Source: a virus (taxonomy: Duplodnaviria > Heunggongvirae > Uroviricota > Caudoviricetes). From it: a stretch of DNA of 9,599 nt. Within the stretch, counting starts at the first letter, position 1. Each line of letters opens with the position of its first letter. The translations under genes and the position numbers were made by a program. Below the pieces are notes generated by a model. That model searched no databases, was not told where the DNA came from, and saw only the letters and a program-made list of their open reading frames with translations. Shown in pieces: positions 5,388-6,545 of the stretch. The stretch covers positions 1-9,599 of the IMG/VR virus record IMGVR_UViG_2713896901_000003, one strand, 5' to 3'.

Positions 5388-6011
5388 ATGTCATCAATCC
5401 GCTTAACTACGAGAATGAAAGAGGAAATCGCTCGTAACGCTTTAATTAAGTCTGGGGTTTTCACTGAACTTGAAGAAGTAACAAAGTTAAAGAACCAGCT
5501 TGCACTTGACGCCAGAGTTATTGCGTTTGGCGGAAAAAAGAAAACTGAGGAAGTGGACAAGCTGGCATCAAACTTAATGGCTATAAGTGAAGAACTTCAA
5601 AAGGTGGGATGTTCATTTTACTCATGCGATGTTCGTTCTACATCAATTTATCTGACTGTATCTGGCAGAAGGGTGGGATGGCATTCATATGGGAAAGACG
5701 GCAACGGTGAAGATATATTGCTTCCCACCCCAGAAAAAGATAAATGCATGTTTGATGCAGAACACGAAATAACAAAAAGGTTTGATGAAATCTGCGCATT
5801 GCAACAAAAACTTGAATCCAGGAAAAAGGATATCGAATCAAATGTATGGGCTGCTTTGAACTCAGTCACAACAGTTAAGCGACTTATTGAAGTTTGGCCT
5901 GAAAGCAAAGAATTGCTACCAAAAGAAGCAGATAAAGCAAGTGCAGCACTTCCTGCTTTACGGGTAGAAGATTTGAATAAGATGATTGGACTTCCTTCCG
6001 AGGCCGCATAA
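5388..6011 (+). CDS. Hypothetical protein (207 aa), PL-operon accessory gene
   Basis: ATG 5388 with GAGAGG Shine-Dalgarno at 5375-5380; the track's TTG 5328 is not used. Lower GC than the lambda-type block. No recognisable catalytic motif; four cysteines (CSFYSC...KC...IC). Confidence 0.75.
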   Translation: MSSIRLTTRMKEEIARNALIKSGVFTELEEVTKLKNQLALDARVIAFGGKKKTEEVDKLASNLMAISEELQKVGCSFYSCDVRSTSIYLTVSGRRVGWHSYGKDGNGEDILLPTPEKDKCMFDAEHEITKRFDEICALQQKLESRKKDIESNVWAALNSVTTVKRLIEVWPESKELLPKEADKASAALPALRVEDLNKMIGLPSEAA

Positions 6012-6026
6012 TCGGCCTTTATTTTT
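6001..6026 (+). terminator. Intrinsic terminator overlapping the stop of the 207-aa ORF
   Basis: Stem AGGCCG (6001-6006) / CGGCCT (6013-6018) with a 6-nt loop, followed by TTATTTTT. Confidence 0.55.
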
Positions 6027-6074
6027 GGCATAAACAACAGAATAAACACTGCACTGAATTATTTGAGGTTAGAT

Positions 6075-6545
6075 ATGACAAAATCATGGAGCGTACCTTT
6101 TCCTGAATCAGAAACTGAACATGAGGGAATGCCTGTTTTCTGGAGATTCCAGGCGACAGTTGAAGAAGATGGAATCAAAATATTCGCACTTCAATATATA
6201 GCTTTTCATCAGACAGAGCATTATGCATGGTTGGTTCCTGCGCATTGGATTGTTAATTTTAAACCAGCACCAAATCAGTGGTTACAGGAATGGAAACAAA
6301 GGAGAAATAGATATGCAATTAAGAAAGTAGCAAAAAATGCAGAAAGATCTTTTGCATTCCCAACGAAGAAACTTGCCATTGAAAGTTTATTGCGCCGGAA
6401 GAAATACCATTTAATGAGAATCAAACAAGATTTGGCTGTTGTATCAACTCTTGTTGATGGGATGAAGAATATTGATACATCAACACCAGATATTGAATAT
6501 AACTTTGGACACAACCAAGAAACAGAAAATTGGGTGTTTTATTAG
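6075..6545 (+). CDS. Hypothetical protein (156 aa), PL-operon accessory gene
   Basis: ATG 6075 with GAGG 6 nt upstream; the track's TTG 6063 is not used. AT-rich. Basic central segment (KQRRNRYAIKKVAKNAERS...LLRRKKYHLMRIK). No recognisable family. Confidence 0.75.
   Translation: MTKSWSVPFPESETEHEGMPVFWRFQATVEEDGIKIFALQYIAFHQTEHYAWLVPAHWIVNFKPAPNQWLQEWKQRRNRYAIKKVAKNAERSFAFPTKKLAIESLLRRKKYHLMRIKQDLAVVSTLVDGMKNIDTSTPDIEYNFGHNQETENWVFY

Follow-up and report, generated by a model that had tools for sequence, protein, structure and literature searches.

A 9,599-nucleotide stretch of a lambda-like prophage (IMG/VR record IMGVR_UViG_2713896901_000003, positions 1 to 9,599; hereafter the window) carries, between the gene for the N antiterminator and the lambda-type block of the PL operon, two open reading frames (ORFs) of 207 and 156 amino acids (aa), referred to here as ORF1 and ORF2, each of which is a clean single-gene insertion or deletion with its own short flanking direct repeat. 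The interval would be a stretch of a hypervariable cassette array located between N and cIII, in which two unrelated single-gene cassettes stand in tandem between N and a PreS/tL2a element, and each cassette would come and go independently, through recombination at short boundary sequences held in common. We regard the evolutionary and structural side of this account as highly probable, and the functional side as tentative; for the explanation as a whole, two independent accessory cassettes of the PL array with early lytic roles, our confidence is moderate. An initial annotation of the window had given the positions and sizes of the two ORFs correctly and had rightly placed them in the part of the PL operon where lambda has ral and sieB, a variable slot for accessory genes. 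It had also proposed that they form a swapped-in two-gene module, which the comparisons reported here do not support.

Junctions and assortment of the two genes

The limits of the cassettes were apparent from pairwise comparison with related phages. In BP-4795 and Stx2_EH0505 window position 5377 is joined straight to 6059, so that the cassette of ORF1 (the Nmad5 cassette, named for the protein family described below) is missing, and in PhiR12_1, lambda and the mEp235-type phages position 6056 is joined straight to 6555, so that the ORF2 cassette is missing. The Nmad5 cassette is bounded by a 9-bp direct repeat, TTATTTGAG, and the ORF2 cassette by an 11-bp direct repeat, AATAARCACTG (Table 1); there are three copies of the first in the window versus 0.11 expected and two of the second versus 0.01 expected. 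The TTATTTGAG repeat also gives the Shine-Dalgarno (SD) context to whichever gene comes next. Its third exact copy lies within the O-like replication gene, near the 3' end, and may be due to chance or mark another module boundary. The 44 nt on the 3' side of Nmad5 (6013-6056) match the lambda sequence just after ral.

Across 160 related IMG/VR loci, 27 combinations of seven elements were found, and the distance from N to cIII ranged from 723 to 3,049 bp. With one exception among the 27 combinations, the elements follow the order ral, Nmad5, ORF2, g98, PreS, g121 or ea10, and a 340-aa coiled-coil protein. Here g98 denotes a 98-aa protein that can sit between ORF2 and PreS, and ea10 (DUF2528) is itself a facultative cassette, which is missing with clean junctions from PhiR12_1 and Stx2_EH0505, where position 6677 is joined to 7078; the other occupants 3' of PreS include a 121-aa protein and the 340-aa protein, which is TolA-like. 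A Ral homologue lies 5' of Nmad5 in eleven of the 160 loci, and since Ral coexists with Nmad5, the latter is an addition and not a replacement of ral. Replacement of ral by the cassette was therefore rejected as an explanation, and the swapped cassette of the initial annotation becomes a case of added cassettes. The likeness to the ral/sieB region of lambda is one of organization: the position in the PL operon is the same, the genes are single, low in GC and have hairpin terminators, and exchange takes place at short conserved boundaries, whereas Ral and SieB have no sequence or family relation to ORF1 or ORF2.

The co-occurrence of the two genes was assessed in 5,426 complete E. coli genomes. 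The Nmad5 gene was found in 209 genomes at 229 places and ORF2 in 593 genomes (~11%) at 834 places, and the two were adjacent in 49 records from 48 genomes. In a rough calculation in which the comparable slots were the 3,375 places matching any part of the N-to-ea10 query, independent assortment would yield about 57 co-occurrences, so that adjacency is not enriched. None of 332 phage records held both genes, and in IMG/VR the partner was present in three of 77 ORF2-anchored loci and six of 72 Nmad5-anchored loci. N is followed by Nmad5 without ORF2 in PhiR12, mEp235, HK542 and Kapi1, and by ORF2 without Nmad5 in HK97, 933W and BP-4795. Among more distant homologues, those of ORF2 in Pectobacterium and Brenneria have no Nmad5 nearby, and in prophages of Klebsiella and Providencia the Nmad5 homologue is the first gene of appreciable size in the leftward operon, with other neighbours and no ORF2 partner. 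ORF1 and ORF2 assort independently and are not a linked module.

These results bear on the proposal that ORF1 and ORF2 are one anti-defence or exclusion module, functioning as a unit and standing in for ral and sieB. Its attraction is that in the window the two genes stand side by side in the same orientation with a similarly high AT content, and that they are also neighbours in the ~48 E. coli genomes mentioned above. However, most carriers hold only one of the genes and adjacency does not exceed the chance expectation, the indel junctions are separate and each has its own boundary repeat, the distant homologues in all four genera do without the partner, and Ral coexists with Nmad5. We consider such a module extremely improbable.

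The PreS/tL2a element and the surroundings of the array

An intrinsic terminator had initially been annotated after each ORF, and hairpins are indeed present at both sites. The first, at 6000, overlaps the ORF1 stop codon, has a folding energy of -11 kcal/mol (z -1.7) and from 6013 on, in its 3' arm, matches the lambda sequence just after ral. The second (-14.2 kcal/mol, z -3.3) lies 103 nt past the ORF2 stop codon, in a stretch of 123 nt (6555-6677) that differs little from the spacer between ral and ea10 in lambda. Terminator-like sites of this kind, a hairpin followed by a T-run, number five in 3 kb versus 2.4 expected. From 6553 to 6670 all but a handful of alignment columns are invariant across the window, lambda, PhiR12_1 and BP-4795, and the spacer is also present in phages without ORF2 and in nearly every related locus, whatever cassettes flank it. 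Because the spacer is near-identical to that of lambda and is kept in phages without ORF2, its hairpin belongs to the conserved backbone and is not ORF2's own terminator. The idea that both hairpins are the own terminators of the two genes was accordingly discarded, since the second corresponds to lambda tL2a, the 3' end of PreS. The lambda-type block that had been placed immediately downstream of ORF2 is present, although it begins at about 6555, with the lambda-like spacer, and not at ea10.

In lambda, PreS (LPR1) lies between ea10 and ral and has tL2a as its 3' end; it is an Hfq-bound small RNA (sRNA) of ~88 nt that is processed to ~68 nt, is expressed during the lytic cycle alone, being absent from lysogens, and raises dnaN translation and phage replication (10.1101/2024.10.31.621285). 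The segment 6555-6677 shares with it the GC-rich hairpin and U-tail and would hold a PreS-like sRNA, which at the ~88-nt size of lambda would span about 6590-6677 and end at the tL2a hairpin; Hfq binding, processing and dnaN activation are known only for lambda. Rfam has no PreS family model. The PreS element is the constant part around which the cassettes shuffle.

The window comprises the immunity and early region of the prophage. Its plus strand carries, from 5' to 3', cI, a 98-aa membrane ORF, the PL/OL region, N, ORF1, ORF2, ea10, cIII, kil, gam, bet and exo, and its minus strand carries the genes for a DnaB-type helicase, an O-like replication protein, cII and cro. ORF1 and ORF2 are within the PL operon, 0.5-1.7 kb 3' of the PL promoter, in the slot equivalent to that occupied by sieB and ral in lambda, and N is the 5' anchor of this variable slot. 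The N allele is unusually short, the N regions of HK97 and 933W being 127 aa long, and is arginine/lysine-rich at its N-terminus; only about the last 22 codons and a 51-nt spacer are common to the window and those N regions. An rrn-like boxA and operator-like repeats are located 5' of N. The 98-aa ORF (phrog_18389), which directly follows cI at the place that rex has in lambda, contains an N-terminal hydrophobic segment, making it a candidate for a membrane protein expressed in lysogens; its sole match among the PADLOC models, to ZorB, was insignificant (E 0.013). The Rfam match to Lambda_thermo, the cIII thermoregulator, is an ordinary lambda feature.

Table 1. Positions of the two cassettes, their boundaries and neighbouring features in the window
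Feature	Position	Strand	Remarks
O-like replication gene	1793-2692	-	
TTATTTGAG, third copy	1938-1946	-	exact copy
cI	3567-4304	+	
98-aa ORF	4345-4641	+	
GC-rich hairpin	4646-4665		bidirectional; after the 98-aa ORF
Operator-like repeats	~4815-4880		
boxA, GCTCTTTAACA	4927-4937		
N	5120-5326	+	68 aa; GTG start; SD GGAGG; Pfam N_peptide E 2.7e-16; phrog_271
Segment common to HK97/933W N regions	5261-5377		
TTATTTGAG, left copy	5369-5377	+	bounds Nmad5 cassette; holds start of SD
ORF1	5388-6011	+	ATG 5388; stop 6009-6011; SD GAGAGG 8 nt 5' of start
Codon of ORF1 R165	5880-5882	+	
Hairpin and T-run	6000-6019, T-run to 6029	+	first terminator-like site 3' of PL
AATAARCACTG, left copy	6041-6051	+	bounds ORF2 cassette
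TTATTTGAG, right copy	6059-6067	+	end of Nmad5 cassette; SD context of ORF2
ORF2	6075-6545	+	ATG 6075; stop 6543-6545; SD GAGG
AATAARCACTG, right copy	6550-6560	+	end of ORF2 cassette
Hairpin and U-run	6648-6669	+	
ea10 cassette	6678-7077		
ea10 (DUF2528)	6696-7064	+	PF10800 E 1.5e-47
Lambda_thermo	7124-7182		Rfam, 88.5 bits; overlaps cIII start

An Nmad5-family protein and a relative of HK97 gp45

It had been stated initially that neither ORF bears a recognisable resemblance to lambda proteins, and they are indeed not lambda proteins; neither has a Ral or SieB match in Pfam, PHROG or NCBIfam. Both do, however, belong to recognisable families. ORF1 matches the Pfam family Nmad5 (PF18757) with an E value of 2.2e-70 and 237.4 bits (cut-off 27), its residues 4-203 aligning over positions 1-206 of the 206-position profile, that is, over its full length, and it matches phrog_1965 with an E value of 4e-82. 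On these matches it is assigned as an unambiguous full-length member of Nmad5 and a stand-alone protein. In a 97%-identical E. coli prophage RefSeq annotates genes of the same lengths (624 nt for ORF1 and 471 nt for ORF2), giving the first the product name 'Nmad5 family putative nucleotide modification protein'. ORF1 is 94% identical to mEp235 gp37, and the Nmad5 cluster at 90% identity has >2,400 member sequences. Homologues of both ORFs reach down to 32-54% identity with their length kept, and the ratio of nonsynonymous to synonymous substitution rates (dN/dS) is 0.21 for ORF1 (33 distinct IMG/VR alleles) and 0.06 for ORF2 (21 distinct alleles), which in both cases denotes purifying selection. 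The full-length profile matches, the length-conserved homologues and the low dN/dS together identify ORF1 and ORF2 as genuine coding genes.

Among 27 aligned Nmad5 sequences W170, P171, E172, P189, L196, N197 and P203 are invariant, and these residues are mostly hydrophobic or structural. They fall in the conserved C-terminal third of ORF1, KRLIEVWPE ... LPALxVxDLNKxIGLP, which aligns with the Nmad5 protein of phage SM_S22; residues 121-207 are 40-44% identical to proteins of Yua-like phages. The AlphaFold model of ORF1 is a confident one, with a predicted local distance difference test (pLDDT) score of 84, and consists of a helical hairpin with a small beta insert: a three-helix N-terminal hairpin (residues 8-72), the beta insert (86-125), a long helix (127-158) and, at the C-terminus, a short helical unit with the invariant WPE followed by a low-confidence tail with LPALxVxDLNKxIGLP. 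Fold searches with this model revealed no enzyme-like fold or catalytic constellation, and Foldseek against BFVD returned only other Nmad5 proteins.

Other searches were made with both proteins. Sequence and profile searches of the PDB gave nothing below E 0.03, NCBIfam gave no significant match, and the PADLOC-DB defence models gave none for ORF1 and only an insignificant match of ORF2 to Cas1_II (E 0.018, 12 bits). No membrane segment was found by hydropathy in either ORF; SieB, unlike ORF1 and ORF2, has one. The source names in the protein clusters of ORF1 and ORF2 are limited to 'hypothetical', 'prophage protein' and 'Nmad5 family'. Taken together, the remote-homology and structure searches supplied the family assignments, and no solved structure, defence model or family of known function.

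The Nmad5 gene is interrupted in one phage. In Stx2_EH1965, a Stx2a phage (LC616032.1, 1196-2504), it is split by a 1.3-kb insertion sequence of the IS3 family (OrfA 108 aa, OrfB 296 aa, on the opposite strand), at a site corresponding to about 5491-5494 of the window, and the Nmad5 matches in other Stx2a records are cut short at the N-terminus in the same way (residues 34-207), which would fit an identical insertion there. The split suggests that the gene is dispensable.

As its name says, the family might be taken to be part of a DNA base-modification pathway that evades restriction, and both the name and the RefSeq product speak for that. So do some gene neighbourhoods: in the M6/Yua-like phages (Yuavirus) Nmad5 is in a thymidine-hypermodification cluster (PMC9476957), and in the N4-like phage Pollock it lies between a thymidylate-synthase homologue and an exonuclease like N4 gp42. 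In a Providencia prophage it is located ahead of a DUF2800 protein, an Enc34-type single-stranded DNA-binding protein and DNA polymerase A. However, according to a citing source that refers to Iyer et al. (2013), the family name derives from gene-neighbourhood inference only. Neither the window nor the complete 37.6-kb genome of mEp235, with its 94%-identical Nmad5 copy, was found to encode base-modification enzymes (hydroxymethylase, kinase, aGPT-Pplase, glycosyltransferase or methylase), and the ORF1 model has no enzyme-like features. Since lambdoid carriers of Nmad5 lack modification enzymes, a role in base modification is very improbable here. The comparison with other Pfam members (SM_S22 CDS6, the Yuavirus/M6 gene and mEp235 gp37) gives a similar picture: like ORF1 they are ~200-250 aa long and have the C-terminal motif KK/KR-LI-x-x-WPE ... 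L-x-V-x-x-LN-x-x-x-G-x-P, but ORF1 stands alone after N in the PL operon of a temperate phage with no base-modification enzymes nearby, whereas the Yuavirus gene belongs to a hypermodification cluster and the Dhillonvirus gene lies antisense within a head-gene module.

ORF2 matches phrog_1636 over positions 1-156 of 156 (E 7e-112) and is 98.7% identical to HK97 gp45 and 99.4% identical to a 933W protein (ST933Wp19). Near-identical genes are directly 3' of N in 933W, H-19B, phi24B, Min27 (ORF20), Stx2-86 and BP-4795 (ORF18), in all of which the product is annotated as hypothetical. By these matches ORF2 is assigned to the family of HK97 gp45, 933W p19 and BP-4795 ORF18 (phrog_1636). The HK97, 933W, BP-4795 and Min27 proteins are 98-99% identical to ORF2, but their genes follow N directly, with no Nmad5 between. 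An exhaustive profile search brought the family to 88 representatives, 130-155 aa long, in all of which an N-terminal beta-meander is combined with a basic 'SRFAF-TK--A---L--RK-----HLKR-L' helix; none of the 88 has a Pfam match, and all their PHROGs are of unknown function. ORF2 has an isoelectric point of 9.1, and its residues 53-130 have a net charge of +12, with acidic ends on both sides. Its model is weak (pLDDT 64) and gave no fold match. Homologues with 57-63% identity in Pectobacterium and Brenneria prophages (4001-4477 of the retrieved loci) are directly 5' of xis-int, at the distal end of the operon, and therefore the ORF2 family is not tied to the position beside N.

Predicted expression and role

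A crude scan for the sigma-70 consensus detected no promoter-like site between 5108 and 7024. Given that no promoter-like site of their own was detected for the two genes, that PL, its operators and boxA are located 5' of them, and that lambda PreS is made only in the lytic cycle, we infer early lytic expression: ORF1 and ORF2 would be transcribed from PL only in lytic growth or upon induction. Because the first hairpin terminator 3' of PL (6000-6029) sits at the end of Nmad5, this gene would be co-transcribed with N as an immediate-early product, and ORF2 and everything beyond it would need N-dependent read-through.

The contrary reading is that one or both genes are morons expressed from the prophage by a private promoter while PL is repressed, and that they guard the lysogen by exclusion or abortive infection in the manner of sieB or rex. 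A strict moron consists of a promoter, a gene and a terminator and is expressed from the prophage. Nmad5 has the terminator (the hairpin at 6000-6019 and its T-run), the low GC content (0.40) and the clean indel, and ORF2 has the GC content (0.36) and the clean indel, with the PreS/tL2a backbone as its nearest terminator; for neither did the crude scan detect a promoter-like site. The GC content of gam-bet-exo is 0.51, so that the AT-richness noted in the initial annotation is real. The moron concept of lambdoid mosaicism is that of Hendrix and of Juhala et al. (2000). Low GC and terminator-like hairpins are typical moron anatomy, lambda sieB occupies the slot, and the presence of ORF2 in 593 of 5,426 E. 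coli genomes with a dN/dS of 0.06 would fit a function beneficial to the host. Conversely, no promoter-like site was detected before either gene, there is no PADLOC match and no membrane segment, and relatives of Nmad5 are common in strictly lytic phages (N4-like phages, Yuavirus and Dhillonvirus), where protection of a lysogen is meaningless. We therefore judge it unlikely that the genes are lysogen-protecting morons.

ORF1 and ORF2 would be dispensable accessory proteins that aid early takeover via DNA metabolism or host defences, and not exclusion factors expressed in lysogens. A tie to DNA metabolism agrees with the neighbours of Nmad5 in Yuavirus, Pollock and the Providencia prophage. Their dispensability is indicated by the absence of each gene from some viable phages (HK97, 933W, mEp235 and lambda), the split of Nmad5 by an IS3-family element and a viable deletion in Dhillonvirus. 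Nmad5 is most likely a non-enzymatic helical adaptor whose function would probably reside in the conserved C-terminal third, the motif in which a Dhillonvirus change permits escape from the Tmn defence; that it is probably not an enzyme is suggested by the helical hairpin and small beta insert of the model and by the mostly hydrophobic or structural nature of the invariant residues. The strongly basic core of ORF2 points most likely to a protein that binds nucleic acid or a host factor.

In our literature search, experiments on Nmad5 were found only in a study of the Tmn defence (PMC11846954), and in the DefensePredictor paper an NMAD domain appears as an unvalidated prediction. For the ORF2 family a search for HK97 and gp45 gave only unrelated gp45 proteins, and searches by accession number for proteins of either family gave no result. 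In the Tmn study, a single nmad5 substitution, K296E, allowed Dhillonvirus SM_S22 to escape from Tmn; deletion of nmad5 was viable and left Tmn sensitivity unchanged, a separate gene was the anti-Tmn factor, and nmad5 proved impossible to clone, apparently owing to toxicity (PMC11846954). In our alignment R165 of ORF1 is the counterpart of SM_S22 K296 (K216 when numbered from the probable true start) and falls within KRLIEVWPE, which is the most conserved stretch of the Nmad5 family. The annotated SM_S22 CDS6 (334 aa, 5005-6009 of the retrieved locus) probably starts at M81, giving a protein of 254 aa, which would explain why the residue is given as K216 in one phage versus K296 in the other. 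The mapping of the escape mutation onto R165 is a lead, not a function.

The same observations bear on whether ORF1 and ORF2 are dedicated counter-defence inhibitors, analogues of Ral, Ocr or Gam that each block one host immune system, a reading that overlaps with ours and differs from it in specificity. It is encouraged by the presence of ral in the same array, by the predicted early expression, dispensability and mosaic distribution of the genes, and by the altered Tmn outcome of the Dhillonvirus point mutation. However, the deletion of nmad5 left Tmn sensitivity unchanged and the anti-Tmn factor is a separate gene (PMC11846954), and hence Nmad5 looks more like a protein that is sensed, or a gain-of-function case, than an inhibitor. 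Moreover, no sequence matching ORF1 or ORF2 was present in the supplementary data from the screen of accessory genes by Silas et al. Dedicated inhibition of this kind seems to us rather unlikely.

Several points weigh against the broader proposal of two early lytic accessory proteins. The lambda prophage expresses sieB, which has this slot there, and lysogens may therefore express ORF1 and ORF2. The promoter scan was crude and covered only the sigma-70 consensus. We infer the functional part of the account from position, composition and models, and the ORF2 model is poor (pLDDT 64). The step from a basic core to nucleic-acid binding is a weak one. Dhillonvirus Nmad5 is only 28% identical to ORF1 over the C-terminal 100 residues and has a head-gene context, and carrying the Tmn link over to ORF1 is speculative.

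As sequences the genes are already known, having been in GenBank since HK97, 933W and mEp235, one of them with a Pfam family, and their mosaic behaviour is routine, indeed classic, for lambdoid phages. The value of the finding is as a pointer to two early genes that are abundant, strongly conserved and part of the array that also holds the anti-restriction gene ral. In addition, a putative PreS-type sRNA is placed in the prophage of the window. Each gene occurs alone in laboratory phages (ORF2 in HK97, Nmad5 in mEp235 and HK542), which makes single-gene knock-outs straightforward, and the mapping of the Tmn-escape residue onto R165 supplies one concrete hypothesis. A bolder proposal, which we hold to be rather unlikely, is that Nmad5 is a host-interaction hub that acts via its C-terminal peptide, either disarming a DNA-targeting host function or serving, in lambdoid and Stx phages, as the pattern to which Tmn and other KAP-NTPase defences respond, and that, independently, the gp45-family protein, which most Stx-converting phages conserve, binds nucleic acid and acts in counter-defence or takeover. 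If that were true, each of the two proteins would represent a functionally new class among early phage proteins.

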